Part shown: positions 3,841 through 27,654 of the stretch, one piece after another
Layout: every line of letters begins with the position of its first letter
Numbering within the stretch: position 1 is the first letter of the stretch
Source: an uncultured Ruminococcus sp.
GTDB taxonomy: Bacteria; Bacillota; Clostridia; Lachnospirales; Lachnospiraceae
NCBI GenBank assembly: GCA_900553885.1
Contig: USFD01000001.1
Location: forward strand, 35,651-99,650
DNA length: 64,000 nt
Direction of reading: 5' to 3'
Program-made: the position numbers and the translations under genes
The notes under the pieces: generated by a model
Database searches by the model: none
What the model was told of the DNA's origin: nothing
What the model saw: only the letters and a program-made list of their open reading frames with translations

Positions 3841-3890
3841 TCTAAAGAGAACTTTTTAATATTGTCTAAAGAGAACTTTTTAATATTGTC
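3841..3890. repeat. Perfect 24-bp tandem duplication (taaagagaactttttaatattgtc, 2 copies) overlapping the 3' end of the Abi gene
   Basis: This was read directly from the sequence. Copy 2 encodes the last 8 codons (MTILKSSL*) of the Abi_2 gene, and copy 1 lies immediately downstream. Confidence 0.8.
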
Positions 3891-6738: not shown

Positions 6739-6753
6739 AAAATTCCACCTGCC

Positions 6754-6963
6754 TCACTCAAAAAGTTTGCACCCCTCATTTTTGAACTCTTCGATTTTGT
6801 CCTGAAGTTCCTCAGTGGTCACTTCCAATTGCTCAGCTAAACAAGATATACAATAAAAATTCTTAGAACTTTTCCCCATCAGTTTTTTTGTAAGTCCTAT
6901 TTCGTTTTTACTGATATTCTTTTTTCCGCAAATATAACAGTCTGCCATCTTAATCATTGTCAT
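6754..6963 (-). CDS. Small Zn-ribbon protein (CxxC...CxxC), unknown function
   Basis: The sequence contains CYICGKKN...YCISCLAEQ...EGCKLFE. The start was set at an internal ATG to remove the 65-nt overlap with brxL. The longest ORF runs to 7014. Confidence 0.35.
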   Translation of the reverse strand: MTMIKMADCYICGKKNISKNEIGLTKKLMGKSSKNFYCISCLAEQLEVTTEELQDKIEEFKNEGCKLFE

Positions 6964-8464: not shown

Positions 8465-8482
8465 TTAGATTCCTCCTACTCA

Positions 8483-10762
8483 TCAAAACAAATCATCGAA
8501 ATCGTCATTCATAGTTGCACTCTTACCGGCTGCTTCGATTTCTATATGACCGGCGAGATCATTGCCCAGATAAACATCTGCTGAATACGTTCCCGATCTT
8601 TTAATATCTGGAATATCAACTTTGAAATGATTATCATCAATACATTCGGACTGATATCTCTTATTTTCATACCCTATGGTCAGAGTATCTCTTATAGTTT
8701 TATTTACATATAAGGTTACAGTAATTCCCTTTTTATAATCAGCCTTAATCTTTTCTCCATCAACGACTGTCACAACAAAGCTGCTATCATTCAGCGAAAA
8801 GGTAATGATCGGTACAATAACCTCTTCCAGCGAAGCTCCTCCGTGTACTTCTACATTGGCCTCTCGGCTACCCTTAAATCTTCCATAATCAGCAAGAACT
8901 ATATATCCTCGATCTTCCTCATTTATTGCAAATGGAAGATCACATCCAGAAAAGAATTTACAACACCTTCCTGAATGTTTACCCTTTGTATCGGTTTCGT
9001 ATTTTTCTTTCTTATTACGCAACACCGCAAGACGTGATGCTCCGTGATCACTTGCAATCACAACGCGTTCGTACTTTCTAAGGCCTAATGTCGTAGCGAC
9101 ATCACTAACTGCTTTTTCAATGATTTCCAACTCCCTTGCCAAATGAATAGGATAAGGATTTTTCGAACTATAGTAATATCCACCTTTATCTTTATGTTTT
9201 ATTTCATCAAGTTCCTCCTCTTTCGGATGCCTTAAATCTTCTGGCCAGTTATTAAAGAAGGCATTGTTTTCACAAGTAATAGTGGGCAGTTCAGCCCTGC
9301 CGATTTCTACAGAAATTTTCAGCCCGCGTCTTCTTGCAAGTTCCGCAATGAATCCAAGATATTCTACTCCAAGTGCATCAATCCAAAAAAGCTGAGTAGA
9401 CCCGTCATTCTTTTCTTTAACAAGCTCATCTCTCTTCGGAAGACGATTATATATTCTCTCAAGCGCAAGTTTGTCTACTTCTTTCAAAAAATCATCGGTT
9501 AGACTATTTCTAAGCTTGAGTTCCTTATATTTTTCAAAATATGTTGTTATTCTAGCAGCAAATCCAGAATCAAGCCCATTCCCATTAAACGGATATCTGT
9601 TGGTATAAGCAGCAAGATCTGGGTATAACTCCCCAAGATTCTCAGGCAGGCCATTATTGGCAATCCAAATGATAACCTCCTGCTTTTCAACCAAAGTATT
9701 ATCCGTTAATTTATAAACACTTTCACCGACGTTTACACGATTGTCATTTACAAAGGGAGCTATTTCTGCTTCGGGATAATGTGATAACAGTCTTTTCCGT
9801 TCTTTATAAAATTGCTGATACTCAGCATTTGTATGAGAAACGGCAATAATAGCACATAGTATTCCTTTCTTGAAACCGGAAAGTCCTGTACTGTTTTTTA
9901 AAACATATCCCAAGTATTTACCTTCATATGCTTTGGCATTCATCACCAAATAGATGTAAAACAACCAACTATTATACTCCTCTCCATATAGTAAACCGTA
10001 AAAATCAGCATCCTGAAAATCAGTAAATCCATATTCTTCAAACAACTTGTTAGTTTGAAAATTCATATTCCGAAGATCTGTAAGCAACTTCTCCCACATA
10101 TCTTCTGTCCCGTACTCCTTAGGGACTTCATCCATGTTTATATTTTTGGCAATCGCTTCATAAGAATCTCTTACACGCTGAATAGGAAGCAAGGAATCTC
10201 TAAATTCCATAATAGTGTTCGCAGACACTTCATTATTGGCCCCGCCTTCCAGAACTTTCAGAAGATTTTTTACTCCATTTATTTTATATATTCCAAGTCC
10301 AGGATCAGAAAATTTAAAGCACAGTGATGTAGCAAGTTCATCACTAAATGCAACCCTTCCGCTTTCAACCAACCTTTTATCATTCTTTACAAGTAATCTT
10401 ACCTGAGGCTCTACACATCTCAGCAACAAAACGACCTGAGCATTTCCCAGATTGTAATCTTTCAGTTCGGTCAAAACATCGTTTACTCTTTCGTTGCCGC
10501 ATAAAGCAAGGTATTCCCCCAAACCGAGCATCACAATATTATTGTAAGAAAATGAAACATCCGCTGTTTCAAGTTTTTCTCTCATCGCATCTAAATCAGG
10601 AAGTTTGTCGACATTTTTGCAGCATTCACTTATACGCAAAAAACTGATCGCTCTGCTTTTTAAGTTATCTATTACTTCTCCGTATTCCTTATCTCCGACT
10701 ACCATGTAAAAAGGCTTATGGATTTTTGAAGCAAAATAGTCTTCTATTGGCTTCATATTCAT
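8483..10762 (-). CDS. pglZ: PglZ-domain protein (alkaline-phosphatase superfamily) of BREX
   Basis: The motifs WIDALGVEYLGFI and VVIASDHGAS fit the PglZ phosphatase-like core. The length (759 aa) and its position between brxC and brxL also fit. Confidence 0.65.
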   Translation of the reverse strand: MNMKPIEDYFASKIHKPFYMVVGDKEYGEVIDNLKSRAISFLRISECCKNVDKLPDLDAMREKLETADVSFSYNNIVMLGLGEYLALCGNERVNDVLTELKDYNLGNAQVVLLLRCVEPQVRLLVKNDKRLVESGRVAFSDELATSLCFKFSDPGLGIYKINGVKNLLKVLEGGANNEVSANTIMEFRDSLLPIQRVRDSYEAIAKNINMDEVPKEYGTEDMWEKLLTDLRNMNFQTNKLFEEYGFTDFQDADFYGLLYGEEYNSWLFYIYLVMNAKAYEGKYLGYVLKNSTGLSGFKKGILCAIIAVSHTNAEYQQFYKERKRLLSHYPEAEIAPFVNDNRVNVGESVYKLTDNTLVEKQEVIIWIANNGLPENLGELYPDLAAYTNRYPFNGNGLDSGFAARITTYFEKYKELKLRNSLTDDFLKEVDKLALERIYNRLPKRDELVKEKNDGSTQLFWIDALGVEYLGFIAELARRRGLKISVEIGRAELPTITCENNAFFNNWPEDLRHPKEEELDEIKHKDKGGYYYSSKNPYPIHLARELEIIEKAVSDVATTLGLRKYERVVIASDHGASRLAVLRNKKEKYETDTKGKHSGRCCKFFSGCDLPFAINEEDRGYIVLADYGRFKGSREANVEVHGGASLEEVIVPIITFSLNDSSFVVTVVDGEKIKADYKKGITVTLYVNKTIRDTLTIGYENKRYQSECIDDNHFKVDIPDIKRSGTYSADVYLGNDLAGHIEIEAAGKSATMNDDFDDLF

Positions 10763-10767
10763 GAGGA

Positions 10768-13700
10768 TTATTCACCTCCATTAATAATTTCTATTCCGAG
10801 TGTCATACTCTCTTTTACCATGGAAATAAGATGTTCCTTTAACTCATCACTACCCATAGAATTAATCTTAGCAATGGCCTTATCACTGCCTCCGGCATTA
10901 TATTCCGCCTTTGCAAGTTCGCAGATCTTCTCACGAATGCGAGGATGTGAATCCCATTCATATGCATCTATAGGCAGAGTATCCAAAGAATCCCTGACTT
11001 TTTCAATGTCGGTCAGGAGCTTTCTATAAGTTCCCAATATACTGCTAAATGCTTCATCGACTTCCCGCTTGTCATTCAGACTATCAAAAAACTGTGCGCC
11101 GTTCAAAAATTCCAATGCTTCCTTGAACTCTTTCTCGCTCGCAGTACCTCTGTTGAGAACTTCAAAAGTCTTTCTGGCCTGATCATATTCCCCCTTTGGA
11201 ATTATCGATAAAATCGGCGTCCTATTTATAGCAGACCAGGCAGCCGGAGTTTTAGTACCGGTCTTATCTCTCCATAACTTGAAGAGCTGTGTCTTTGTCT
11301 GATTCTTACGGAATTCATCAGCGACTCTCTTTACTATTGCATTACTCTCTGTCCTTGACTTTTTGAAAATATCGGCAAGCTCTGCCGTCCTTAACCGAGC
11401 CACATCGTCATCATTCAGGCCTTCCAGATAAGGAGAATAAATCCTCATGAATGCAGGAATTTCATTTGAAAGATAACTTTCAAGTACAGCCGAATTACTT
11501 ACTATACTATCTGTATAGGTTTTCATCTGCTCCGGCAGGATATCAGCGTCAAGGTAAATCTTTTTCAAGAATTCAAACACATCTTTCAGTTGGGGATATT
11601 CCTCCTGAAGAGCTTCACATGAGCACATTACGAATTTCAGTTTTTCCTGCCATTCCTTATCTGCATCATTCTTGGAATGAACTGTAATATGCAGAATATC
11701 ATTAGTTGCCTTTACATATGTATAGTCAATTATAAGTTCCTTGATCCTTTCTTCGCCTGTATCAAGATTCCAAAGACTGGAATATTCAACTGAGAACAGC
11801 CTTCCGATATCTTTTATAATGTTATCATCGCTTGCTCCGATATTATCAGCCAAATTTCGAAGCTTCCTACCATCAAAATGTTCGATAAACTTCAGCATAC
11901 CTTTGCGGCAGTTTTCCGGAGTCAGTAAATCATGAAGGGAACCTACTATTTTATCGTTTTTCAAAGATTCAGCGCCAATCTCTTTTGCAATCTGATGCGC
12001 ATCTTCGCCCTCTTTCTGTACGAGGAGTATATATTTGGAGACAATATCATAAACTCCGTCAGCATCTACATACCTTAAGCACCATACCGGCAGTCCCAGA
12101 TTCTGCATTCTGGACTTCACAGACGACGATGCCTTTGCGGGAGATGAGAGCGTATTTTCCGGAATACCCCATGCTTTTTCAGTAGTGGCATAGAAGGCAC
12201 GTTCCTCCTGCGTCATTTTTACTATGTAGGTAGAGGTTCCCTTACTTATGCAGTTGCCAATAATCTCTGCAAGTTTGTTCGAATCCATCTCTCCGTTGGC
12301 ACCTTTGGGGTCAATATAGCGATATTTTGTCAGGCTATATTCCTTGAGAAGAAATCCCATAAGGAATGCCGTCAAATTGCACTGTGCATATCCAAATTTA
12401 GATACAAGATGCTCGTACACATCAAGAACTGACACTGACTGATTATTGTCAAACAGATCTTTTATCAAAACTTCAACAGAGGACTTTATGACCGAAATTC
12501 CTATACCAGAGGTCTCGGGCTTTGTCCAATAATTATCAACATTCCATACACCTGCTAACGTGCTCTTTTCCGCCCCAGCCATTACTCCGCTTGTCTTTTG
12601 GTTAATGCCGCACAAAGCAGCTGCCTTTGCATTTGATAACTTGAATTGCGATTCCGTAAGCCCCTTTCCAAAATCAGGCACATATCTGAATTTTTTAAGA
12701 ACAACCGTCTGCAGAACGTCTGCCACAGCTGAACCACCCAATACTTTCTCCCCATCAGGATAATCCTTGCTCCATATCGTAAAAATTCCGTTATAGATGC
12801 GATTCTTCCATGTTATGGTTAGAACCTGCTCCGCTTTCTTGGCGTTATCTCTTGCAGACAGATTGTTATTATGTTGATAGTAATTCGCCATTGCGGAGTA
12901 CTCGACATAAGAATTAAAATCGTCATCACCCAGCGGACTTGCTGTAGCATCGATAAATAGAATGTTGTTATAATCTCCGCTTGCCACCGCTGCCTTAATC
13001 TTGTCACGCAGCGCGACGCCTTCTGCTGCGTCTTTCGCAAACGCTAAGACAGCATTAAAGTGCCAATTTTCCTGACGATTTTTTAATGTATTGATTTTTT
13101 TTGTAATATCATTTATCGTCACCGTAGTTATCTGGCCGCTCGTGTAGTCTTCGGCAAAACGTAACCTAAGCGGCGGATTCAGAGAAAGACAGGTTCCAAG
13201 TTTTCCGTCACTGACGAGGCTAGCAGCTGAACTGCTGTTTCTAATCAACTCCTTGTATTCATTTATCTTTACCTGATCTCCGGCAAGTACCGCCACACCG
13301 TAGGCAAATTTATTATTACCGATAGGTGTCTGAACGAGAACTCCACTCTTGCAGAGCTGCTTTGCCAGATTTTTGCATTTAGTATCCATTCCGGAAGTTA
13401 TGCCTTCAAAAACATAACTAATGTTCTGTTCCGTCGGCTTAAGTACGTCAAGCTCACCACCCAAGCGTTTATCAATCGCCTGCATGATAAGGATAGCTTT
13501 CAGGACACGTTTTTCATCATCCCTGAGATTTTTCTGCTGAGGATAAGCGTCAAGGATCATTCTGATGTCAGGAGAAAGGTTATCTTTGCCCTTTTCATAG
13601 AAGAAGTCCCAGAGCATATCAATAGTCAAAAATGGGTAATCGTCATCCGGTCCATAGTTGGATATGAACCACTGAAAAGCCTGCGAATCATCTTTTACCT

Positions 13701-14907
13701 TAATAAAATCAAACATACTACGCTGATTGGATGCAAACGCAGACGCAATGTTTTTAAGGACAAGCGCGGCCATAGGATGAAGCGGCATAATCTTCTTTAT
13801 AACTTTCTGATCAGTGATATTCGCCGCTTTCATCACAGCGTTTCTTGAATCGCTGAGACGACTGTTGAGCGTGTTAGCGCAGTTATTCCAAGTATCTGCT
13901 GCTGCCGATTTAACCTTGAAAGCATCGCCTATGAGATCAAACGCAATATTGTCTGGGAGCGTGATCTCAACCTTATCAAAACGTTGCTGAACAACCTTCC
14001 ATGATTCATCCTGATTATCAATAATACTGCCCGCCTGATGGGTAACGATGACAAGATAGAACGGACTCTCCTGGCAAAGAGCGACGACTTTCTGAAACTC
14101 ATCAAGCGAATACTTGTTGTTTTCAAAGAATTTGCTGAATTCATCCCAGAAAAATACAATCTTTATATGATTCTGGTCAATTACATCCTTGAGCCATACT
14201 TTCAGCCTGTCGGCATCAAGATTCATAGCTGTAATGCCTTCTTTGTCAGCAAGTTCAAAAATGTTTGACATGAGATCCTTTATGTCGCCGGATTTCTTCA
14301 ATGTATTGAGAACCTCATCTGCATTGGACTGAGAGAACTTTGCAATCCATTCTGGCTTCTGGAGAAGATCATTAAAGAATCTTTTATGTGCCGGGTCTTC
14401 TATCCAAGAGATAACATTCTCCTTGAATGTATTTTCACCCATATATGTAACACGATCACTCTTTTCCAAAGCTTCACGTACACTCTCCTGAATTTCGGCA
14501 AAGAACTTCTGCGGAGTGGTAATTCCGCCTGTCGCATATCTGTAAACTGTCACAATACCCCTGTCTCTGTGGCCAAGAAGCTTTGAGAGAAGGTCGCTCT
14601 CCTTTTTCAGCGCGTCATAGCTATTCCAGTAAGCTTTCAGCTCATCTTCGGGGACTTCCAGAATACTCTTCAACGCAAAAGCACACTGTGATTTTCCGGT
14701 TCCGTAAGCACCGTGAATCCATACGGAACGGTTCGTGCTTCCTCCCAGCATATTTTCTGTTGCACGCAGTAATTTGATAAATGTCGCGTGGGGGTAGGTG
14801 GTATCCCACCTTGCGCCTCCCGCTATCGCGGAATCATCAATACACGGGAAATACTTTTCATCGATATCAAAGAACTGATCGTATTTTCCTCTTCCAAATC
14901 CAGCCAT
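10768..14907 (-). CDS. brxC: BrxC/PglY-like P-loop ATPase (BREX)
   Basis: An N-terminal Walker A motif GAYGTGKSQCAFAL and a Walker B-like IVFFWDEF are present. The protein is 1379 aa, with a gaggagg RBS, and follows the type-4 BREX gene order. Confidence 0.6.
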   Translation of the reverse strand: MAGFGRGKYDQFFDIDEKYFPCIDDSAIAGGARWDTTYPHATFIKLLRATENMLGGSTNRSVWIHGAYGTGKSQCAFALKSILEVPEDELKAYWNSYDALKKESDLLSKLLGHRDRGIVTVYRYATGGITTPQKFFAEIQESVREALEKSDRVTYMGENTFKENVISWIEDPAHKRFFNDLLQKPEWIAKFSQSNADEVLNTLKKSGDIKDLMSNIFELADKEGITAMNLDADRLKVWLKDVIDQNHIKIVFFWDEFSKFFENNKYSLDEFQKVVALCQESPFYLVIVTHQAGSIIDNQDESWKVVQQRFDKVEITLPDNIAFDLIGDAFKVKSAAADTWNNCANTLNSRLSDSRNAVMKAANITDQKVIKKIMPLHPMAALVLKNIASAFASNQRSMFDFIKVKDDSQAFQWFISNYGPDDDYPFLTIDMLWDFFYEKGKDNLSPDIRMILDAYPQQKNLRDDEKRVLKAILIMQAIDKRLGGELDVLKPTEQNISYVFEGITSGMDTKCKNLAKQLCKSGVLVQTPIGNNKFAYGVAVLAGDQVKINEYKELIRNSSSAASLVSDGKLGTCLSLNPPLRLRFAEDYTSGQITTVTINDITKKINTLKNRQENWHFNAVLAFAKDAAEGVALRDKIKAAVASGDYNNILFIDATASPLGDDDFNSYVEYSAMANYYQHNNNLSARDNAKKAEQVLTITWKNRIYNGIFTIWSKDYPDGEKVLGGSAVADVLQTVVLKKFRYVPDFGKGLTESQFKLSNAKAAALCGINQKTSGVMAGAEKSTLAGVWNVDNYWTKPETSGIGISVIKSSVEVLIKDLFDNNQSVSVLDVYEHLVSKFGYAQCNLTAFLMGFLLKEYSLTKYRYIDPKGANGEMDSNKLAEIIGNCISKGTSTYIVKMTQEERAFYATTEKAWGIPENTLSSPAKASSSVKSRMQNLGLPVWCLRYVDADGVYDIVSKYILLVQKEGEDAHQIAKEIGAESLKNDKIVGSLHDLLTPENCRKGMLKFIEHFDGRKLRNLADNIGASDDNIIKDIGRLFSVEYSSLWNLDTGEERIKELIIDYTYVKATNDILHITVHSKNDADKEWQEKLKFVMCSCEALQEEYPQLKDVFEFLKKIYLDADILPEQMKTYTDSIVSNSAVLESYLSNEIPAFMRIYSPYLEGLNDDDVARLRTAELADIFKKSRTESNAIVKRVADEFRKNQTKTQLFKLWRDKTGTKTPAAWSAINRTPILSIIPKGEYDQARKTFEVLNRGTASEKEFKEALEFLNGAQFFDSLNDKREVDEAFSSILGTYRKLLTDIEKVRDSLDTLPIDAYEWDSHPRIREKICELAKAEYNAGGSDKAIAKINSMGSDELKEHLISMVKESMTLGIEIINGGE

Positions 14908-14909
14908 GA

Positions 14910-17216
14910 TTAATCCTCCTCAAACAGACGTAGGACATCCTTCGATGTCTTATCCGTCAATGATATTTTATCCAGGTCATTTGTAAACGTAGCGTTTATG
15001 AAATCCGGGTACTTAGCTGTCAACCCCATCAAAATTGACTTGGTATCCTCATATTCGAGTCCGAAGAGTCGAGTTGGGCTGATACCATCACGATCTATAT
15101 CATCGTTCATCATCCATGCTAGAGTAAATTCCTTGTAGTCGTTGCACGCCTCCGCAAATTTGTAGAGAGCATAAAGAACAACGCGGTTGTCAGAAATAAT
15201 ACATTTAGTTCTACAAATAGAATTAATCTGTCTACCGTTCTCTTCAACACACCCCCAATTCAACGTAGTTCCCATAGGTAATTCACAAAATCTCTTAAAG
15301 GCATTTATGATCGACGTAGCATCCGCCTTACTTACTCCCTCAGCCATTAAGAGATCCCTTACTTTATTTCGCGGATAAAAAATTCCAACATCCAAATTAT
15401 TTACATACCATGCAAACTGAGGATTTTCAACAAAATTAACTATCATAATTCCCCAAGATGTTTCGCTTTCCCAGCCAAGTTTTGAAACAATATCATAAAG
15501 TGCCGTTGTTTTATTATCTTTACCTATAATTCCAGATTCTCTAAAAAATCTTTTAACTTTTGGCTCTTGATTTTTTTTATTCAACGTATTGTTCTCCCAA
15601 TACTCATTTCCAAGTTCAAAAAACTCTCTGATCCAATCTACCTTTGGCGCATGATTTGCAAAGGAATTTAAACTCTTATCTTTCATGTTTCCTCCTGTTG
15701 TAGTTCTTAAAGAATGAAATAATAAACATCCATCATCTATTTCATGACATTGTCCACAATGAACACAACCATCAATTTTTAAGCCATGATCAAAGGTAAT
15801 ACAACCGTTTCGGCAATTCGTCTCACAAACACGACATCCTGTACAATATGCAGCCTTATGGAATACCTGCTTAAACTTCTTTATTTCTTGCGGATATTTC
15901 TTTAATAATGACGCATCACATGTAACAATATATCCTTCTAATGTTTGCTCAAAGGAAAATTCGAACGGAATTTGTCCAAGTGTTTTAATCCATTCTCTCC
16001 AATCAGTTGATGGATTCTTCACCGTAATAATAAGTTTTCGATCCTTTACTTCGTCTTTATACTTTTGCTTATTAATCGTAAGATCTCTTCCGTTTTTTCG
16101 AGCATTCCATCCACCCCTGGATACATATGTGTTAAGTGAATTTTCATTATCCTTATCTCTTGCATCCATCGATTTTATCAGATCTACATACTTTGAAACT
16201 TCAGAGGGATATGCACAATATTGAATATAATCTCCTTTATTGCCACCCATAGGACAGAAAAGACACCCCGCTCTAGAGTTTCCCTTTTTATAGGCTTCAT
16301 TGACATATATACCCTTTGCAAATATATACAGCCATACCTCAGCGGACGTCCACTCTAAAATCGCATTAAAACTATATTGCCCCTTCTGCTTTTTCCCATA
16401 ATTTTCGTACTGGTATTCGCTTCTGGCTACACTTTCATGCTTGCGGACACCAACAAAGTCCATTCCAACGTAATCATCTTTGCCGGTAATCTCTCTCAAC
16501 TTCAGCGTCTGTGGTGCACTCTTATGAACGCTGCAGCACCAGCGAAGAACCCTTGCAGGAGGGCCGAAAATCTTCCAGGATTCATGTGGATCAAAGTGGG
16601 ATCGAGCCACATAAAACGGCGTTCCATCCTCTTCACAAGCCTGCTTTTCTTTTTCAACTGCAACATAGGTATCCGGAAATTCCATTCCTGTATCGCCGAA
16701 GACAACAACAAAGCTCCCCTTAGGCAATGCCCGTTTCACCAGATCTAAGAGTACCGCACTGTCCTTGCCTCCCGAAAAAGCCACATGGAATATATCGAGC
16801 TTGTTCTTATACTTCTCGTATATTGCCACAATCTTTTTGACCGTAGTATTCTCAATGATATCAAGCAGATCAAGATTCTTATTAACCATTCCCTCTATAT
16901 CAACAGGGCGTAACATACCCCCGTCTGGCTCCGGCTGAACAGGATTGCCCTCACTGTCCTTGGGGATTATTATCTCCGGTGCTTCATACAGGTTACCGCC
17001 TTTAAGTTTAGCCACCTGCTTTCCTCTATACCAGTATTGAACAGACTCCGCCCACATATAGGGAGCATCCGATTGCTTGTCATATTTCCAGTATTTATCA
17101 AATCCAAGCAGATCCAACTCCGGTGCATAGACCGGTCTTGGCTCCTTAGAAAATACTGTAGGCGTGGAATTCAGAAGGATCCCGCCTGTTTCTTCATCAT
17201 AAGTATATGAATACAA
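14910..17216 (-). CDS. brxP: BrxP-like PAPS-reductase family PP-loop ATP pyrophosphatase with a C-terminal Cys-rich (Fe-S-like) region
   Basis: The PP-loop motif SGGKDS appears in HVAFSGGKDSAVLLD. A Cys cluster follows: CTGCRVCETNCRNGC....CVHCGQCHEIDDGC. The start is TTG, 2 nt after the upstream stop, behind an aaaggag RBS. It is homologous to DndC/SspD-type proteins. Confidence 0.65.
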   Translation of the reverse strand: MYSYTYDEETGGILLNSTPTVFSKEPRPVYAPELDLLGFDKYWKYDKQSDAPYMWAESVQYWYRGKQVAKLKGGNLYEAPEIIIPKDSEGNPVQPEPDGGMLRPVDIEGMVNKNLDLLDIIENTTVKKIVAIYEKYKNKLDIFHVAFSGGKDSAVLLDLVKRALPKGSFVVVFGDTGMEFPDTYVAVEKEKQACEEDGTPFYVARSHFDPHESWKIFGPPARVLRWCCSVHKSAPQTLKLREITGKDDYVGMDFVGVRKHESVARSEYQYENYGKKQKGQYSFNAILEWTSAEVWLYIFAKGIYVNEAYKKGNSRAGCLFCPMGGNKGDYIQYCAYPSEVSKYVDLIKSMDARDKDNENSLNTYVSRGGWNARKNGRDLTINKQKYKDEVKDRKLIITVKNPSTDWREWIKTLGQIPFEFSFEQTLEGYIVTCDASLLKKYPQEIKKFKQVFHKAAYCTGCRVCETNCRNGCITFDHGLKIDGCVHCGQCHEIDDGCLLFHSLRTTTGGNMKDKSLNSFANHAPKVDWIREFFELGNEYWENNTLNKKNQEPKVKRFFRESGIIGKDNKTTALYDIVSKLGWESETSWGIMIVNFVENPQFAWYVNNLDVGIFYPRNKVRDLLMAEGVSKADATSIINAFKRFCELPMGTTLNWGCVEENGRQINSICRTKCIISDNRVVLYALYKFAEACNDYKEFTLAWMMNDDIDRDGISPTRLFGLEYEDTKSILMGLTAKYPDFINATFTNDLDKISLTDKTSKDVLRLFEED

Positions 17217-17218
17217 GC

Positions 17219-19603
17219 TTACTTTCTCCTTTCTCGCAGCTGAGCAGCTTCGTTTATCAGCAAATCAATATCTTTGTATTTCTTTCTTTCCATATATCCA
17301 GCCTCTGTCAGAAAACCAAAGACCTCGCTCTGCTGCAAATCTCTACCAGAGCGTGCAACTGCTTGCGTCATAATATCATGATAGCTAAGCGTACATGACT
17401 TAATCACTATTGCCCCTGAATTAGATGAATTTGCGCGACGCGTCTCATACTTATATTTTTTGCTGAACCGGCGGCAATAGCTTTCAAGCAAATAAAGGTT
17501 CCATCCATATCCACAGAAGGGGAATGTACTAAAAGTCGTTATTTCCCGCATTCCGATAAAGTCATCGGTGATCACATAATCAAGCGCCGCATCTATGCGG
17601 TCTATATCAAACTGAATAAATCTATCCGCAATAAAATCATCCTTATCAACGCGAACCATGACAGCATTAGCTGCCTCGATTATATCTGGTCGCCTGATAG
17701 TACCTGTAACCCGTTTAGCTATACCTTCAAGGCGATCATAAGTGCATTTATCCTGTTTCCGGCAAAACTCAATTACAGCAGTGTATGTATCTTTACTGGC
17801 TCCTTTACGCGTCAGTACTCTAGCATTTCTCTCGAAACGATCCTCAACCAATTTGTAAAAGCATGTATAAAGTGCTGCCTCCGAAATTTCCGGATTTGCT
17901 TCAACTAAATGGTCAAATGGGATCTCGTCCAATGAAACCACTCCATGTTTCTCACATTGCTCATCCGCGTAATCAGAAAGGCTTTCTATCTCAGCTTCGT
18001 CCGCTTCAAACCAATCTGCCTGCATATAAGTTTCCGCAGAATTCCAGACGAATGCTGGCTGTTTGGCCAGTGTGAACTTTATCTTATCCATCGGAATCAG
18101 TGGCAGTTTCATAGAGAGTTCATCAAAAGTCTGCAATGTACTGCTGCCCCAAACACGTATAATATCATTTTTTATTAGTTCAAATTCTGTTTGGCGCTCT
18201 GAAGGTAAAGCAAAATAATTACTCCTGTACCGAAACTGCGGCATAAGATACTTTAATATTGCCTTAAGCATATCTGCCGATATGATCTTCGCCTCAGAAT
18301 ATTCATAGAACTTAAAATCATAAAGCGAATCATAATAAACAATATTGACTCCTTGATTCTTATAGTCATTAATCTCATTAACGATGGACTTCATACTGTC
18401 ATCCGAGATAAGATAAACTTTCCCATCAAACTCAAACCCCATCTCTCTGATGGCATTAAGCAACACGTCATCACTCAGTGAACAATCCAAATCGTTAACT
18501 TCCTCATAGGATGCTCTAAATCTGTACAGTTCTACACCATCGTCCTTAAAGCCATACTCAAAACGTGGGAGCTTCAAAGTTTCTCTTATTCGATCTAACT
18601 CGTCCTTGCTTACTTTTTCTTGCGGGGAAACCTTTTCACCTTTTGACTTTTGAAACTTTCTACCTCCTTTCAAGCCCAAGAACTCAAGATATTTTGCTAA
18701 TGCAGCAGTTAACCTATTATGCTGCGTTTCATTATAGACTCGAAAATCATTATCCAAAGTCAAGAGTGCTATATTGCTTTCTAATTTATCTAGAGATTCC
18801 TCGCCATAAATTCTACCTGTACCAATATTATGTTCCGCACATAAAGAATCACATCTGTTAATTGCTGATGCATAGCTTCTTCCTGTAGGCGCAGCAAGAC
18901 CTTTATTCTCTGTCAGCCAAAGATAAAAGTCAGACTTATTTATTCCTGAACTTGGTTTATCTTTCTCTTCTGTCTCTTCATCAGGATACTTATGCACAAG
19001 AAATTCTTTATACTTGATTAATCCGCTAATCATGGAGTATCTCCGACTCCTTGAATGGATTCTTATTCCTTTACTGCTCCTGATATTATCTATCAAGAGA
19101 GATATTTCATCAGAATCATCCATTTCAAGGATTCGATTATGAATGACCCCCTTTTTCTTCAACAATATCTCCAAGACCCCCAATTCTTCGATAACCGCTG
19201 AAGAAGCTTTTTCAGACAAAGTATGCTCAAGCCATTCTTGAAACGCGGATTTATTGTTTGTGGAAGCTTCTGACACAATCCTCGCCTCCTTTAATAATTC
19301 AGCAAATGCATCTTGATCATTTTGATATTTATTAACTATATCGAAGTACCATCCACGTGTAACATGCAGACCTGACTTACCACCAGTATACGCATATTCG
19401 AGGCAGTTCATCTGAAGCGAAATACCATTCTCATTACGAAATTTCTCGTCGATTTTAATTCCACGTGATTCAGCTTCTTTTCTAAGCCTTTTTGATACTT
19501 CTGATATTGCCTCTTTCCTTTCAGTTTTTCCATTCAGTACGTCTATCAGTGCTTGGAGCAAGACAGCTTGTTCATGCTCATTCCAGACAATTCTGGTTGA
19601 CAT
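17219..19603 (-). CDS. Large hypothetical protein (794 aa), first structural gene of the BREX-like operon
   Basis: This is a clean ORF with an RBS (gaaggaagg). No P-loop or nuclease motifs were recognised, and no family could be assigned. It is translationally coupled to brxP. Confidence 0.5.
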   Translation of the reverse strand: MSTRIVWNEHEQAVLLQALIDVLNGKTERKEAISEVSKRLRKEAESRGIKIDEKFRNENGISLQMNCLEYAYTGGKSGLHVTRGWYFDIVNKYQNDQDAFAELLKEARIVSEASTNNKSAFQEWLEHTLSEKASSAVIEELGVLEILLKKKGVIHNRILEMDDSDEISLLIDNIRSSKGIRIHSRSRRYSMISGLIKYKEFLVHKYPDEETEEKDKPSSGINKSDFYLWLTENKGLAAPTGRSYASAINRCDSLCAEHNIGTGRIYGEESLDKLESNIALLTLDNDFRVYNETQHNRLTAALAKYLEFLGLKGGRKFQKSKGEKVSPQEKVSKDELDRIRETLKLPRFEYGFKDDGVELYRFRASYEEVNDLDCSLSDDVLLNAIREMGFEFDGKVYLISDDSMKSIVNEINDYKNQGVNIVYYDSLYDFKFYEYSEAKIISADMLKAILKYLMPQFRYRSNYFALPSERQTEFELIKNDIIRVWGSSTLQTFDELSMKLPLIPMDKIKFTLAKQPAFVWNSAETYMQADWFEADEAEIESLSDYADEQCEKHGVVSLDEIPFDHLVEANPEISEAALYTCFYKLVEDRFERNARVLTRKGASKDTYTAVIEFCRKQDKCTYDRLEGIAKRVTGTIRRPDIIEAANAVMVRVDKDDFIADRFIQFDIDRIDAALDYVITDDFIGMREITTFSTFPFCGYGWNLYLLESYCRRFSKKYKYETRRANSSNSGAIVIKSCTLSYHDIMTQAVARSGRDLQQSEVFGFLTEAGYMERKKYKDIDLLINEAAQLRERRK

Positions 19604-21766: not shown

Positions 21767-22738
21767 TTATCCGCAGTATTGTCTATATGCTTCGATTAAA
21801 ACCCGCTGAATTTCTTCCCTAAACCTCTTCGGCCCCATCACTTCACATTGATCTATATGCTCTAAAACCCATAACTTCATTTCTGATGGCACACCCATAA
21901 TCTTGACTGCGATTTTAGTCCCGTCGTTTCGTATAACATCAGCATCTTTTCCGAAAGTCTCCGCTACATCCTGCCATAAATCCAGGCCACACTCTATTTC
22001 GAATTTTTCTTTTTTCTCTCCATTCTGAAAAATAAATTTCTCCGCATACTGACCGGGATTTAAGCCTCCGAAGATCATATCAACCCCTCTTTCCAGTATT
22101 GCAATATCTTTTAACAGATCGATACGAAAATGTTCCAGTTGCTCTATCCCTTCTCTTCTGCCAAGAATGTAATAATTTCCTTCTGCCCACAGAGTAACAT
22201 ACGGGCTCAACACAATCGGACTGTCCTGTCTTTCCGTCAGCTCGTGATCCAGCCCATATTCCATCATTTTCACGCTCACTTTACACCCCTGGTTAATCGC
22301 AACATTGAGTGTGTCTATATTATAGAACAGCTGTTTATTCAGTATTTTCTTCTCTGATTTTACAAATACGGTTTTCTGGAGCATTCTTCCCTGAAAAATA
22401 CTCTGAGTATCTGTCAGTTTTTTAATGATGGTTTTCCCTGTTTTCTCATTTATCATATCGGAAGCAGCCACAGCATCACAGAGTAGCCTTATTTCTGACA
22501 GTTCAAATTCTCTGTCAATCAGATAATACCCCTCCCGATTTTCCTGATATCCTTCTATTTCAATCCCCATACTACGAAGAGCGTCAATATTACGATAGAC
22601 TGCCCTGCGCTCCATATCAATATCATATACTTTTTTCAGCTTTTCCCGTATTTTTTCTGTTGACAGAATATGATTTTCATCCGTATATCTTTTTAAGATC
22701 TCATATACACATAATATAGTTGCCTTTTGTGCGATCAT
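21767..22738 (-). CDS. WYL-domain transcriptional regulator (wHTH-WYL-WCX architecture; BrxR/CapW/PafBC-like)
   Basis: The N-terminal wHTH (ILCVYEILKRYTDENHILSTEKIREKL...RRAVYRNIDALRSMGIEIE) and a central WYL-like region are present. At 323 aa it is typical of this family. It is divergent from the PolC-like gene. Confidence 0.65.
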   Translation of the reverse strand: MIAQKATILCVYEILKRYTDENHILSTEKIREKLKKVYDIDMERRAVYRNIDALRSMGIEIEGYQENREGYYLIDREFELSEIRLLCDAVAASDMINEKTGKTIIKKLTDTQSIFQGRMLQKTVFVKSEKKILNKQLFYNIDTLNVAINQGCKVSVKMMEYGLDHELTERQDSPIVLSPYVTLWAEGNYYILGRREGIEQLEHFRIDLLKDIAILERGVDMIFGGLNPGQYAEKFIFQNGEKKEKFEIECGLDLWQDVAETFGKDADVIRNDGTKIAVKIMGVPSEMKLWVLEHIDQCEVMGPKRFREEIQRVLIEAYRQYCG

Positions 22739-22898
22739 TATTTTTACCTCTGAAGATTCTTAACTATATTATAGCGGTTCATCCTCTTCAAGGCAATCAA
22801 ACGCTGTACCTGAAATAGTACAACGACTGGAATACATATGGCAATTATAATTTGCTATACTCTACCCACGAAACAAAGCAGAAAATGGAGGGTTAACA

Positions 22899-24248
22899 AT
22901 GAACATACCACATATTGAACATGCACTGGATCATATAACAACTGCCTGTCAGAAAAAACTTTCTTTTCTTTATCCCCAGGGAGTACCAGAACCGGTACGC
23001 GACAGGTATACGAAAGAACTCACTTTGCTCTCACATTCCGAACTTATAGATGATTTTGAAATATTTCGGTTGTTTTCAGATGAAGCAAGAAAAAGTTCTG
23101 TTCCCATACACATGAAAGGAACCGTCATGGGATCGTTTATTTATTATCTTCTTGGAGTAAACTGCTTTAATCCGCTTCCAGTTCACTATTATTGTACTGA
23201 CTGCGGTTATTATGAAGAAGTCCATACTCATCTGTTTGGAATTGATCTTCCCTCAAAAAAATGTCCGCAATGCGGGAAAGATATTACAGCTGACGGTTTT
23301 AATCTGCCGCTTGAAAGTGTCTGGGGTAATGACGGGAAAAAAATTATTTCATTTGAGTACTCCGTAAGTACAGAATTTTTCCCTTTTGCCCGGCGTGTGC
23401 TTAATTCCATATATCCTGATAACCCTGTTATCCCATGGGGTATGTTTCAGTTTGAGGCAGGGCTTTCAGGCCCCGATAGAGACGGACAGGTAATCGGTAT
23501 TTCCCCTGCCGGCTATACTGTACTTCCGGCAGGAAATACAATCCACGACTATCCTGATCTGATTTCTTATTTAGAAAATGGTGAACCCTGTGTTACAGGC
23601 GGCAGTTGGGAATTATCGATACATTCATTAAAACCGATACGCTTATGCCAGTTCGATTACATAGATGACCTGCTCCATCTTCAGCGGGCAACCGGGATTT
23701 ATGCAAATGAGCTGACTCCTGACGTACTCCGTGATATCACCTGGAGTAATATCTACAATACTGCCATACTGAACAGTACATCCCGTATGTTGTTCCATGA
23801 AATGAAGCCAAAAACATTTAAAGATATGGTTGCTTTGGATTCCAGTTCTCATAATTCTTTTTCGTGGAATAAGAATTATGCCGAAGGTATTAACCTTTAC
23901 TGTTTTCAGAAAATGATCTCATCTGACGCCTTTAAAAAATATCCCTGTTTTACACGGGAAGATTTCTTTGATTATTTACTTGAATCCGGCCTCGAAAGAT
24001 CTTTAGCTTTTGAAGCATCCGAACGGATCAGGAAAGGACATGCTTGTTCCACAAAAGAAAGCAAAGAACTATTTGATTCACTCCCCATACCTGATGATAT
24101 GAAAGAAGTTGCCAGAAATTATTGGTATGTATTTCCTCGGGCACATGGGATCGAATATATATTACTCTACGCTCAACTTGCCTATTATGCCAGAATTGAC
24201 AGCCGTGCCTTCAGTAAAATCATGTTTAAAAAGAAAAACCCAATCTAA
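22899..24248 (+). CDS. PolC-type DNA polymerase III core homologue (PHP-C/Zn-finger/palm/fingers region) with the catalytic aspartates apparently replaced; a pseudo-polymerase
   Basis: The segment HYYCTDCGYYEE...GIDLPSKKCPQCGKDITADGFNLPLESVWG parallels the PolC Zn-finger HYLCPNCKYSEF...GFDLPDKNCPRCG...DGHDIPFETFLGF. The segment YVFPRAHGIEYILLYAQLAYYA parallels PolC MFPKAHAAAYVLMA and the FNKSHAAAYAVVAYQ of the dnaE gene in this window. Where PolC has PDIDLNFS this protein has KIISFEYS, and where PolC has KLDILGH it has HLQRATG. An RBS (ggaggg) is present. Confidence 0.7.
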   Translation: MNIPHIEHALDHITTACQKKLSFLYPQGVPEPVRDRYTKELTLLSHSELIDDFEIFRLFSDEARKSSVPIHMKGTVMGSFIYYLLGVNCFNPLPVHYYCTDCGYYEEVHTHLFGIDLPSKKCPQCGKDITADGFNLPLESVWGNDGKKIISFEYSVSTEFFPFARRVLNSIYPDNPVIPWGMFQFEAGLSGPDRDGQVIGISPAGYTVLPAGNTIHDYPDLISYLENGEPCVTGGSWELSIHSLKPIRLCQFDYIDDLLHLQRATGIYANELTPDVLRDITWSNIYNTAILNSTSRMLFHEMKPKTFKDMVALDSSSHNSFSWNKNYAEGINLYCFQKMISSDAFKKYPCFTREDFFDYLLESGLERSLAFEASERIRKGHACSTKESKELFDSLPIPDDMKEVARNYWYVFPRAHGIEYILLYAQLAYYARIDSRAFSKIMFKKKNPI

Positions 24249-24329
24249 TACAAAACACCGGGACAAAATATCGCGACCACTAATTAAGCGGTAAATTTAA
24301 GGGGTTCAGTGAATGTCACATTAAACCGG

Positions 24330-24420
24330 ACTGGCCTCTAGTCTATCTGATTGAAAATGACATTCTGACACTTACGCTCATTGATACCGGAACACATGCA
24401 GATATTTTTAAACTTCAGTA
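24330..24420 (+). pseudogene. C-terminal remnant of a RelE/ParE-like toxin
   Basis: It translates as ...LIENDILTLTLIDTGTHADIFKLQ*, which resembles the RelE/ParE C-terminal pattern (..IL.IGHR.DIY). No upstream ORF remains. Confidence 0.25.
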
Positions 24421-24612: not shown

Positions 24613-24939
24613 CTACTGTTCAGACTGTTCCACTTTCTTTCTATAATTCTCCAACTGATGGAAAACACCTGTTACATATACGGAAACTTCCTCTATCCGG
24701 AATATGATCACATAGTCCATATCAGTTAAGACCTCCTCCCGATACCCTCTGTGCCGCAGATTCATCTCTCTGCTTTCAGGAAACTGAAAAAAATCTTCTT
24801 CCAGTCTGTCATAAATCCTGTCGATACTGTCAAACAGATGTACAGTTGCCCGAGTGTTTTTCAGTCTGTATATCAAATGATATATAAGGTTATCCAAAAG
24901 TTTTTCTGCTTTTTCAGTAATGATCAGTTTATAAGCCAT
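24613..24939 (-). CDS. Type II toxin, RelE/ParE superfamily
   Basis: The protein is 108 aa. It overlaps the upstream antitoxin gene by 11 nt, and its size and architecture are typical of ParE/RelE toxins. Confidence 0.55.
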   Translation of the reverse strand: MAYKLIITEKAEKLLDNLIYHLIYRLKNTRATVHLFDSIDRIYDRLEEDFFQFPESREMNLRHRGYREEVLTDMDYVIIFRIEEVSVYVTGVFHQLENYRKKVEQSEQ

Positions 24940-25198
24940 GCCGTTCTCTCATAGATGAAAGGGACTTCTTTGCATCCTTTATCTTCCCTTCCCGGATCTG
25001 CGTCTCCGAAGCCTCAATATCTTCATACATTTCAATCCGTTTCATCTGAGATTCGTAACTTTCCATGCTCATGATGACCATATCACCATAACCGTTTTTC
25101 GTAACATAGATCGGTTCATCTGTACGATGACACATTTCTGATATATCAGAAGTATTTTTCAGATCCTTTATTGGAATAATCTTCGGCATTATATGCAC
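24929..25198 (-). CDS. Type II antitoxin, Phd/YefM-like
   Basis: The protein is 89 aa. The segment IPIKDLKNTSDISEMCHRTDEPIYVTKNGYGDMVIMSMESYES matches the Phd/YefM pattern (I.ATEAR.NFS.L....EPV.IT.NG....VL.S.E.YE). Confidence 0.55.
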   Translation of the reverse strand: MHIMPKIIPIKDLKNTSDISEMCHRTDEPIYVTKNGYGDMVIMSMESYESQMKRIEMYEDIEASETQIREGKIKDAKKSLSSMRERHGL

Positions 25199-25304: not shown

Positions 25305-26186
25305 TTATAAGTGTGAAAATGGAATTCCGCTTTCTATCTTATTATCCTTTTGCATAGGGAATAAAAAATAATCGCTATTAATATAAACTAATTCATATAA
25401 CTCTGGCACAACAGAAAATTGTTGACTCATAATACGAATTGGCTCATACAACAATTTGTCCGCTCGAGTTCCCACAATAATCCCTTTTAAAATGCCATCC
25501 AGACTTATGCCGGGGTTTTCTTCGGATGTATCTTTTATTAAAAATCTATATTCATTCTCATCTCTCCAATCTGGATGCTTCGAAAAATAATATATATCTG
25601 CAAATTTTTCTATTCTGTTTTCAACCACCTTTTCAATACTATTTTCCTTTAACTCACTTGTATATAATGTGTATGCTTCAACACTAGCTTCTAATTTATC
25701 ATAATCATATTCATAAATCACATCACGTGACAAATGATACCGATCACAAAATTCATCATCAAACTTCTCTACAAATTTTTTCTTATCTAAAACCAAACAT
25801 ACTCCTTTATGATTATCGGAATACTGTGCCCACATTCTGGGCTTTATAAAACCTCTTCCTTTATTCCTGGGAAAATCCATTTGTTTAGGAATACTGTCCT
25901 GTGAGCAGCACAAAACCTTCACTGCTTTACGCAATGCATCTGCAAATCTCTTTTGATTTGTAACAAACTGAGCAAAAAAAGCATCTTGCGGTTCCATCCC
26001 CCCGCCTAAATCATCGTTCATTTGAAAACCGTGATCATAAATTTCCTCGGGATCATTTGTTTCTCTAATATTCGAAAATCTTAGCGTCTTTTGTGGCAGT
26101 ATATACAATACCAATGTTTCAATTGTTGTATAATGATATAGGTATTCTTGTGTATCTTCCTCATTATTTATCTTTGTTGATATCAT
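25305..26186 (-). CDS. DUF2971-family protein
   Basis: The sequence YLYHYTTIETLVLYILPQKTLRFSNIRETNDPEE is the hallmark DUF2971 motif (YHYTS...L.......LR.S....NDP.E). Confidence 0.55.
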   Translation of the reverse strand: MISTKINNEEDTQEYLYHYTTIETLVLYILPQKTLRFSNIRETNDPEEIYDHGFQMNDDLGGGMEPQDAFFAQFVTNQKRFADALRKAVKVLCCSQDSIPKQMDFPRNKGRGFIKPRMWAQYSDNHKGVCLVLDKKKFVEKFDDEFCDRYHLSRDVIYEYDYDKLEASVEAYTLYTSELKENSIEKVVENRIEKFADIYYFSKHPDWRDENEYRFLIKDTSEENPGISLDGILKGIIVGTRADKLLYEPIRIMSQQFSVVPELYELVYINSDYFLFPMQKDNKIESGIPFSHL

Positions 26187-26631: not shown

Positions 26632-27654
26632 TTACTTCTCCTCCAAAACCTCATTATCCAGCTCTTCAACTTCTTCCGGAGTCATTTCAAGAAGCTCCGC
26701 AATCATCGCAAGGCTCATCCCCTTCTCCTTCTTTTTCCTGATAAGCTTCTGCAGAACGCTTCGCTCTCCCTGCGTCTTTCCCTGTTTTATTCCCTGCTCT
26801 ATTCCCTGCTTTATTCCCTGCTCTATTCCTTGCTTTATTCCCTGCTCTATTCCCTGCTCTATTCCTTGCTTTATTCCCTGCTCTATTCCCTGCTTTACTC
26901 CCCGCTCTATTCCTTCTTCCATTCCCTTTTTCAGGCCATACTCTCTTGCACTCTTCATCTGTGAATTATAATCTCTTATCGCTTTTTGACGGGCCTCATA
27001 CTCCATCCTTTTCTGTTCATCCATACTGAGCTTCTTCAGTTCATCATATGCCTCTTCAATATACTCGTCTGTCTTCGCCATATCTTCGAACTCCTTTCGG
27101 TTCTTCCCGCCAAAAAAGCGCATCCAGCGGATAACCCCTTCTTCATTCTGATCCCCGGGAGGCAGCTTTTTCAATTCAAGGATATGAAGCTCCATCAGAT
27201 CCGTATACTGTTCTCCGGTTTCCACATCACAGAAAGCAATCTTCCGGTAACACTTTTTATCCTGAGGAAAATGGATGAAATCCAGGATGCTTACATGAAT
27301 GCATTTCTTCAGCACATCATAATCTTCTCCCTCTTTAATCTGCCCGCTGTACGTTTTGCTCACATAAAACAGTACCCGGCTGGACCAGTAGCCAAAATAA
27401 GCGACCTGCATCTCCATATTGATTTTTGATCCGTCCTCCATCTCCACCATCACATCAAGAATCCCCAGCTTTGCATCTTTTGATTCTTTCTTTGTGGCAT
27501 TCGGAATGAGTGTTGTCTTTCTTATTGTCTTCGGATCTTTTCCCATGATCGCCGCAATAAATCCTTGTCTGACTTTCGGATTCTGCATCAATTCTTTAAA
27601 ACAGAAATCCACGGTGGGAAGCATAATAAAATTTTCACTGTTTCTTTTGTCCAT
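26632..27654 (-). CDS. Rpn-family recombination-promoting nuclease / putative transposase (PD-(D/E)XK, YhgA-like)
   Basis: It has the typical Rpn N-terminus MLPTVDFCFKELMQNPKVRQGFIAAI and a C-terminal low-complexity QGIEQGIKQGIEQGIEQGIK repeat. Confidence 0.75.
   Translation of the reverse strand: MDKRNSENFIMLPTVDFCFKELMQNPKVRQGFIAAIMGKDPKTIRKTTLIPNATKKESKDAKLGILDVMVEMEDGSKINMEMQVAYFGYWSSRVLFYVSKTYSGQIKEGEDYDVLKKCIHVSILDFIHFPQDKKCYRKIAFCDVETGEQYTDLMELHILELKKLPPGDQNEEGVIRWMRFFGGKNRKEFEDMAKTDEYIEEAYDELKKLSMDEQKRMEYEARQKAIRDYNSQMKSAREYGLKKGMEEGIERGVKQGIEQGIKQGIEQGIEQGIKQGIEQGIKQGIEQGIKQGKTQGERSVLQKLIRKKKEKGMSLAMIAELLEMTPEEVEELDNEVLEEK
26784..26935. repeat. 12-nt tandem repeat (~13 units of YtattccYtgct), coding
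   Basis: The repeat lies inside the Rpn gene and encodes the GI(E/K)Q repeat. It is not a CRISPR array. Confidence 0.8.

Follow-up and report, generated by a model that had tools for sequence, protein, structure and literature searches.

A two-gene cassette pairs a WYL-domain regulator with a predicted catalytically dead PolC core in gut Lachnospiraceae

The window analysed here is a 64,000-nucleotide stretch of contig USFD01000001.1 (positions 35,651 to 99,650, assembly GCA_900553885.1) from an uncultured Ruminococcus sp. of the Lachnospiraceae. One of its genes, at 22899..24248 on the plus strand, encodes a protein of 449 aa that we describe as a predicted catalytically dead core of the DNA polymerase PolC, made of a palm with a Cys4 Zn finger, a shortened thumb segment and the fingers. 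Its constant partner is a divergent gene (21767..22738, minus strand) for a transcription regulator of 323 aa with wHTH-WYL-WCX architecture. We are highly confident that the locus is a two-gene cassette built around this dead polymerase core. The protein represents an undescribed, predicted inactive member of the C family of polymerases and is probably a stress- or phage-induced factor that acts without catalysis. An earlier reading of the window, made from the sequence alone and without database searches (the sequence-only reading), had pointed to the gene as a pseudo-polymerase beside a WYL regulator.

By descent the 449-aa protein is a PolC, yet among the functional hallmarks of PolC it keeps only the fold and the Zn finger. 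The NCBIfam equivalog models of PolC, TIGR01405 and NF001688, match it at E=1.6e-37 and 7e-37, with scores of 128.8 and 126.6 bits that miss the respective cutoffs of 1043 and 873, and the match is confined to model positions ~823-1300. A phmmer search of the PDB returned PolC only (3f2b, E=1.6e-30; 9qpc, E=1.6e-27), in two blocks covering residues 3-177 and 296-430; a profile of the family improved the match to 8e-41 and left residues 186-295 unaligned. The palm-thumb-fingers core fold of C-family polymerases is present. The protein begins at position 2 of PF07733 (palm) and has no Pfam match to a PHP domain or an exonuclease, so that no C-terminal half of a PHP domain is present, contrary to what had been proposed from the sequence. 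It ends ~20 residues past the FPRAH motif, inside the fingers, and lacks the N-terminal, OB, PHP, DnaQ-type exonuclease, HhH duplex-binding, clamp-binding and tau-binding regions of PolC. Its predicted isoelectric point (pI) is 5.8, and a check by eye of the family consensus revealed no convincing clamp-binding motif. Pfam, NCBIfam, the PDB and the alignment with PolC thus agree with the sequence-only reading that this is a stand-alone, intact PolC-core homologue without N-terminal domains, exonuclease and clamp-binding region, and the PolC-specific Cys4 Zn finger and the FPRAH fingers motif that it named are both there. The window also encodes a DnaE (46475-49948, minus strand, 1157 aa) with an intact PDIDVDF motif and the FNKSHAAAY motif cited for comparison, which shows a normal C-family polymerase in use in the host; the window does not contain polC.

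The active site was examined in a MAFFT alignment in which the core regions of five full-length PolCs were combined with the window protein and nine of its relatives. The other retrieved proteins were added to it afterwards, and residues were counted over 152 full-length relatives (400-470 aa). The three catalytic aspartates correspond in the window protein to S151, E153 and R248: PDIDLNF of PolC pairs with I-S151-F-E153-Y-S-V, and LKxDILGH with L-K-P-I-R248-L-C. Among the relatives, the first position is mostly S (78), D (19) or T (19) and is acidic in 27 of 152. The second is D (75) or E (63), hence acidic in 138 of 152, with S, T, C or H in some full-length members. The third is most often R (56), L (23) or M (12), is acidic in only five of 152, and has no conserved acid within four columns either way. 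The register of this third position rests on MAFFT and predicted secondary structure, because HMMER with the family profile could not align residues 186-295 to PolC. Residues 245-251 are predicted to form a beta-strand with a helix after it, the pattern that the strand of the third aspartate should show (LKFDILGH in PolC), and the HLQRATG segment, previously taken for this position, lies ~14 residues beyond R248, within that helix. The loss of the third aspartate holds after this correction. The claim that all three aspartates are substituted therefore stands for the first and the third, now S151 and R248, and fails for the second, since E153 is still acidic; the statement that no acidic residues remain has to be dropped for this protein and for most of its relatives. 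By this alignment, two of the three catalytic carboxylates are lost, and one acidic residue is usually kept.

Other elements of the catalytic core are altered as well. KRTTGQHPGG of PolC is degenerate (GQVIGISPAG), a ~21-residue deletion takes out (I/L)PEFGT, which is absent in all 152 relatives, and a ~30-residue deletion between the DxD and the HPGG strands shortens a segment that corresponds to the thumb when compared with the domain boundaries in E. coli Pol III alpha. This segment is also the least confident part of the predicted model (predicted local distance difference test, pLDDT, 63-72 for residues 181-200). Relative to the solved PolCs (3f2b, 9qpc), the protein therefore combines one third of the length with an S/E/R triad, a degenerate HPGG, no PEFGT and a shorter thumb. 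On the other hand, the Zn-finger cysteines C99, C102, C122 and C125 align with those of PolC and are kept in 150-152 of the 152 relatives. Also retained are RGT..GS, R353/D355 (T/C-R-D/E-D in PolC; TReD), K379/G380 (RKG) and R414/H416 (FPRAH). Conserved residues that are specific to the family and not found in PolC include D51, D52, E54, R57, C231, C350, Q262, R263, G266 and Y268, together with C17 and the motifs DDFE (51-54) and LQR.TG.Y. Because the C-terminal duplex- and clamp-binding region is lost, the thumb and PEFGT segments are deleted and the pI is acidic, canonical primer-template binding cannot be assumed, and for the same reasons the proposal of a repurposed DNA-binding module is not supported.

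The persistence of one acidic residue raises the question of a residual enzyme, a polymerase or nucleotidyltransferase using E153 and other carboxylates, such as those of DDFE. The frequent D or E at the second triad position, the partly kept triphosphate-contact motifs and the new conserved acids D51, D52 and E54, absent from PolC, would fit such an activity. Yet the family has not conserved a carboxylate at the first or the third position, the second gives way to S, T, C or H in some full-length members, the HPGG and PEFGT motifs are lost, and DDFE stands at positions that are hydrophobic in PolC. In C-family structures, this part of the palm packs against the PHP domain, which is missing here, so DDFE may simply be newly exposed surface. 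We regard a residual enzyme as highly improbable.

The protein belongs to a sizeable family. A search of 5.8 billion proteins retrieved 146 clusters, nearly all of 430-450 aa and with 99-100% coverage, down to 43% identity, and an exhaustive search of 50%-identity representatives found several dozen more stand-alone clusters, down to ~25-30% identity. In all, the family counts ~150 full-length proteins of 430-450 aa with the same ends, annotated as 'hypothetical protein' in every source that names one. Among the 50%-identity representatives, real PolCs (~1400 aa) do not surface before ~E=1e-30 and match only in partial stretches, at 28-31% identity; over the searches made, the identity of the window protein to real PolCs is 23-31%. 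For relatives with unsaturated synonymous divergence, the Nei-Gojobori ratio of nonsynonymous to synonymous substitution rates (dN/dS) is 0.12 and 0.14 for the dead-PolC gene and 0.07-0.08 for the gene of the WYL partner. This inactive branch of the C family is widespread in gut Lachnospiraceae and under purifying selection, and its distribution is patchy (~30 matches among 185,579 species genomes in a pattern-limited search).

These data bear on the simplest alternative, that the gene is a recent, decaying fragment of a duplicated polC. Such an origin would account for the truncated architecture, and for nothing beyond it. The low identity to real PolCs, the many full-length relatives sharing the same ends down to ~30% identity, the low dN/dS and the gene's own conserved promoter and ribosome-binding site (RBS) all contradict it, and no flanking polC remnants were found. 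We consider this alternative refuted and rejected it, in agreement with the sequence-only reading, which had seen a conserved gene rather than a dead fragment and had named a recent polC duplicate as the finding that would overturn it.

The second gene of the cassette is better conserved than the first. Its product has an N-terminal winged helix-turn-helix (HTH), a central WYL and a C-terminal WCX domain. A phmmer search of the PDB gave no match to any solved WYL protein, and the class was recognised by fold search. When tblastn was run with this protein, ~24 of 27 informative loci showed a homologue with 64-82% identity that is divergent from the PolC-like gene and lies ~155-165 bp upstream of it; the PolC-like proteins of these loci are 40-80% identical. 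Loci without a WYL homologue are interrupted by a contig end (L006, L029), carry decayed or truncated copies (L011, L036), or have full-size PolC-type genes that are not family members (L032-L034, L037). Starting from the WYL side (P0369, >100 contigs), the divergent neighbour was a 438-aa PolC-like gene, and the pair was seen in five further contigs. In two Erysipelotrichaceae/Solobacterium loci the WYL gene is 29% identical and co-directional with the PolC-like gene, in a rearranged cassette with a 75-aa open reading frame (ORF), the WYL gene and the dead PolC core in this order on one strand (L024, 8519-11344, Erysipelotrichaceae; L026, 3226-5946, Solobacterium). The persistence of the pair in this arrangement implies that the link survived rearrangement. 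The WYL neighbour noticed in the window is thus not only confirmed but strengthened into a near-constant partner that shares a conserved control region.

The sole locus of the close clade without a WYL gene is L017 (7701-11329), where a member with 46% identity is directly preceded by a 733-aa protein with PHP and PolC core and no exonuclease, itself matching the PolC equivalog at E=1.7e-116, below the cutoff. Another locus, L035 (4365-14160), has a shorter, distant PolC-core-like gene (342 aa, 27% identity) followed by that of a 684-aa AAA ATPase, with two WYL paralogues (27% identical to that of the window) within 5 kb.

The two genes share a divergent control region of 160 bp, which we compared over 22 aligned intergenic regions; the proteins encoded at these loci share no more than 40-80% identity. 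Between the divergent promoters lies an imperfect palindrome (22802..22825) with the family consensus GCTGTACC-N6-GGTACAGC, conserved over the 22 loci, which is the presumed operator and the probable binding site of the WYL protein. On the minus strand, the WYL promoter (22768..22796) has a -35 TTGCCT (22796-22791), a 17-nt spacer and a -10 TATAAT (22773-22768), with 10 of 12 consensus matches; its ATTATA and GCAA are kept in nearly all 22 loci. The predicted promoter of the dead-PolC gene (22829..22861, plus strand) has an extended -10, TG-c-TATACT (22853-22861), and a GG-a-ACA element (22829-22838), and the aligned loci show the conserved columns 'GG.a.Acat' and 'Tg.TATAgT'. The GG-a-ACA element overlaps a weak -35 and, to judge by its resemblance, may be a third half-site of the palindrome. 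An RBS, GGAGGG (22887..22892, plus strand), stands 6 nt before the ATG of the uninterrupted 449-codon ORF, as had been read from the sequence, and GGAGG is conserved across loci. The centre of the palindrome, ~52-55 bp upstream of both presumed start sites, would suit activation. Both promoters look self-sufficient, and a half-site-like element overlaps the -35, two features that would suit repression.

What this regulator may do is suggested by its class. Regulators of the wHTH-WYL-WCX class respond to single-stranded DNA (ssDNA), and the genes under their control are neighbouring ones for defence or DNA damage (PMC11662680, PMC9122601, PMC10853764); switching by ssDNA bound to the WYL domain is known for CapW and DriD (PMC11662680, PMC10853764). 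CapW is a repressor that leaves DNA when its WYL domain binds ssDNA arising from DNA damage (PMC11662680), many defence islands begin with BrxR, likewise a repressor (PMC9122601), and regulators of the BrxR/CapW type are found with adjacent defence systems (PMC9122601, PMC9122588, PMC11662680). The cassette resembles these systems in having the same regulator architecture beside its cargo, a palindrome in the shared promoter region and a frequent location in defence islands. It differs in several respects: the WYL partner is too divergent for a sequence match to solved WYL proteins, its family is found in Lachnospiraceae and Erysipelotrichaceae whereas the BrxR family has been reported mainly from Proteobacteria, and a lone dead polymerase core, with no counterpart in PADLOC-DB v2, makes up the cargo.

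Our preferred reading, held tentatively and at somewhat less than an even chance, is that the 449-aa protein is a WYL-controlled effector, induced by ssDNA or damage, that acts on replication without catalysis, leaning towards accessory phage defence or replication stress. The cassette would consist of a wHTH-WYL-WCX factor and a divergent PolC-derived core unable to polymerise. The WYL protein would bind the palindrome, and its activity would switch when the WYL domain binds ssDNA, as in CapW, BrxR and DriD. The ssDNA could come from DNA damage or phage replication, and this signal would turn on the dead core, which would then act through its Zn finger, its fingers and triphosphate-contact motifs, its one D or E and its family-specific surface. 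Its target may be the 3' end of a DNA strand, a nucleotide or a protein of the replisome, and the outcome would be interference with, or reporting on, DNA replication. A more specific version, in which the cassette is a stand-alone immune or checkpoint system whose core is made upon ssDNA and caps 3' ends, sequesters a nucleotide or a replisome partner, or binds phage replication proteins, thereby stopping the replication of the phage (or of the cell), is possible and in our view on the unlikely side.

Several observations weigh against this preferred reading. The shortened thumb, the acidic pI and the lack of the HhH and clamp region speak against a binding of DNA like that of a polymerase. 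An identity of ~25% to real PolC makes a close PolC mimic unlikely, and we judged a PolC decoy unlikely on this ground. Distant relatives (~30-38% identity) have other neighbours and no WYL gene, several loci have housekeeping neighbours only, and the 449-aa protein matches no PADLOC-DB v2 family at E <= 0.001. The palindrome stands just upstream of both -35 elements and not over the core promoters, a position compatible with repression and with activation. A 98%-identical relative has a nonsense-mutated WYL gene next to an intact PolC-like gene, and this disfavours a strongly toxic effector, if the WYL protein is a repressor. The mutation, seen in two independent assemblies (L038, 8869-9840; L039, 501-1472), is a premature stop without indel that leaves ORFs of 149 and 165 aa; the truncated product keeps the wHTH, and the argument on toxicity is thus not decisive. 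Finally, the role we propose for the 449-aa protein is deduced from sequence.

The effector could also serve the response to DNA damage rather than phage defence. In DriD and PafBC, ssDNA switches on an activator of damage responses that do not depend on SOS (PMC10853764, PMC12041258). If the WYL protein acted like them, the dead core would be a checkpoint or scaffold protein made upon damage; it could slow replication or, as a PolC-family counterpart of ImuB, recruit another polymerase. The parallel with DriD-DidA and PafBC lies in a WYL factor with a small, dedicated, damage-induced and non-enzymatic effector, and in an operator placed upstream of the -35; their effector is unrelated to the dead PolC core, and the distribution here is accessory and not core. 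ImuB, in the ImuA-ImuB-DnaE2 mutasome, is alike in being a polymerase fold under selection after the loss of its carboxylates, presumably to serve for binding without catalysis, under a control that responds to stress. The likeness is one of function alone: ImuB is a Y-family protein controlled by LexA, whereas the 449-aa protein is of the C family and paired with a WYL regulator. An ImuB-type RecA-NT motif was not found by eye in the family consensus, and no ImuA or DnaE2 partner was found among 134 flanking ORFs from 15 genomes. The patchy distribution, the location in low-GC variable regions, the absence of a clamp-binding motif (by eye) and of a C-terminal domain, and two promoters that look activator-independent (a conserved TATAAT and an extended -10) also argue against a damage-response factor, which we hold to be unlikely.

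In the window, the surroundings of the cassette are rich in defence genes. The first ~28 kb of the window have a low GC content (0.31-0.45, against 0.46-0.54 at ~29-50 kb). This low-GC block holds a BREX type-4-like operon (5620-19603, minus strand) that starts with a gene for a 794-aa protein without Pfam, PADLOC or NCBIfam match (17219-19603) and continues with BrxP (14910-17216), BrxC (10768-14907), PglZ (8483-10762), BrxL (6950-8464) and a DndA/IscS-like cysteine desulfurase (5620-6738), all on the minus strand. It also contains an AbiD/Abi_2 abortive-infection gene (3866-4912, minus strand) in the part of the window with the lowest GC (0.31-0.33). Just 3' of the PolC-like gene lie a C-terminal remnant of a RelE/YafQ-type toxin (~24300-24420, plus strand) and a ParE/Phd toxin-antitoxin pair (24613-25198, minus strand), followed by a DUF2971/PDC-S31 candidate defence gene (25305-26186) and a PD-(D/E)XK_2 transposase (26632-27654). 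The 98%-identical relative in L038 is devoid of the segment 25648-26619 of the window, and its DUF2971 gene has the C-terminal part only. The location in a defence island, claimed from the sequence, is thereby confirmed for a low-GC, defence-rich block.

Elsewhere the surroundings change. The neighbours include DndB and a methyltransferase in one locus, and HNH, methyltransferase and McrBC-like genes in another, as well as alanine dehydrogenase with Trk, an N6-methyltransferase with a resolvase, MNT-HEPN beside lysS, and a GmrSD gene adjoining the rearranged cassette in L024. PADLOC found in some flanks BrxL, DndA, PbeC, PDC-S01, PDC-S72, PD-T4-3, MADS components and others. The 134 flanking ORFs match 135 Pfam families, of which the Xre-type HTH alone recurs (8 ORFs), and neither Pfam nor an all-against-all BLAST identified a third conserved gene among them. 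The search for orthologues and their neighbourhoods that the sequence-only reading had suggested gave ~150 relatives and showed, for the loci compared, that the WYL partner is kept and the other neighbours vary: the cassette is a two-gene unit, often but not always at the edge of variable defence cargo. We rejected the idea that it is a BREX component, since BREX genes flank it only in the window and in L014 and L019, on opposite sides, and the other loci are without them; in L014 and L019 a similar DndA-BrxL-PglZ-BrxC set is on the other side of the cassette. In one species (L041-L045), the cassette lies beside lysS with an adjacent MNT-HEPN pair, and both stay in place; Tn916-like elements (integrase, sigma-70 r4, HTH_16, DUF6462) occupy the lysS end in L041, L042, L044 and L045 and not in L043.

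This variability also speaks to a view of the cassette as the sensor and regulator at the head of variable defence islands, in which the WYL protein would control the defence genes on its own strand, BREX in the window, and the dead core would be a co-sensor or modulator. Yet the WYL gene is followed by gaps of 80-480 bp and then by unrelated genes, which in L004 and L025 are housekeeping or on the other strand, L014 and L019 have BREX beyond the other end of the cassette, and an interaction of the two proteins has no support. We find this view quite unlikely.

Mobile genetic elements could provide another explanation, with the dead core as a replication factor working for or against such an element, an adaptor that binds the replisome and with which the element recruits host replication proteins or the host blocks this recruitment. 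A 38%-identical relative is indeed fused to DnaA domain IV, the origin-binding HTH, beside an integrase and an IS91-type transposase, and another relative is the one preceded by the 733-aa PHP and PolC-core gene in L017. In the fusion (L046/L047, 8001-9620; P0134, P0419, P0422), the dead PolC core carries a C-terminal PF08299 and is encoded in a co-directional operon of 13 genes whose products are unknown, adjoining genes for a tyrosine integrase and an IS91-type Y2 transposase; the fusion is present in NCBI, ENA and Logan assemblies. A comparison of the neighbours of this variant and of that in L017 with PHROGs gave nothing useful. The clade linked to WYL is, however, chromosomal, with an unchanged position whether or not an integrative element is adjacent, and it has no member in phage, plasmid or IMG/VR collections. 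The tblastn searches of 50,697 phage and 72,556 plasmid records gave real PolC only (<27% identity), the scan of IMG/VR contigs gave no family member, and BFVD contained full-size DnaE-type polymerases only. We consequently rejected a phage or plasmid origin, and consider a role in the replication of mobile elements very unlikely.

The window gene represents a single clade within a larger radiation of PolC-derived proteins that has no classification. PolC-like proteins without exonuclease form a large and apparently unclassified set (P0184-P0269). Among forms of 600-860 aa with PHP and core, some keep the DDD triad (P0200, P0210, P0227) and others do not (P0209 has DCK, P0220 YDS, P0224 YTY and P0269 NEV). 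The ~430-450-aa cores P0192 and P0208 retain DDD, HPGG and PEF, and in another relative the dead core is followed by DUF1643. This diversity may have escaped notice for methodological reasons. A survey of Pol III alpha homologues in 2014 took out fragments without an intact active site (PMC3919608), and one in 2026 recognised in the C family only PolC and DnaE1-3 and discarded strongly diverged or truncated sequences (PMC12926913). Since both dropped such sequences, a conserved inactive branch would have been filtered out by design. Full-text literature searches returned nothing relevant on WYL with PolC, PF07733 with defence, or PolC-like proteins with anti-phage activity. The 449-aa protein works like nothing characterised so far; the nearest concept is ImuB, and the nearest regulatory logic is that of BrxR/CapW or DriD with their cargo.

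C-family polymerases are currently viewed as four groups of active enzymes, PolC and DnaE1-3. If the immune or checkpoint reading is true, the cassette would reveal the first inactivated branch of this family with a function of its own, within a wider and unexplored radiation of truncated PolC-like proteins. If the protein interferes with replication, it would provide a simple two-gene system for a dead replicase core acting on the replisome or on phage replication, and would add a Gram-positive, non-Proteobacterial case to WYL-controlled immunity. It also draws attention to many further truncated PolC-like proteins, some with the triad and some lacking it, including forms that have a PHP domain or a fused DnaA domain IV, which have apparently remained unclassified so far.

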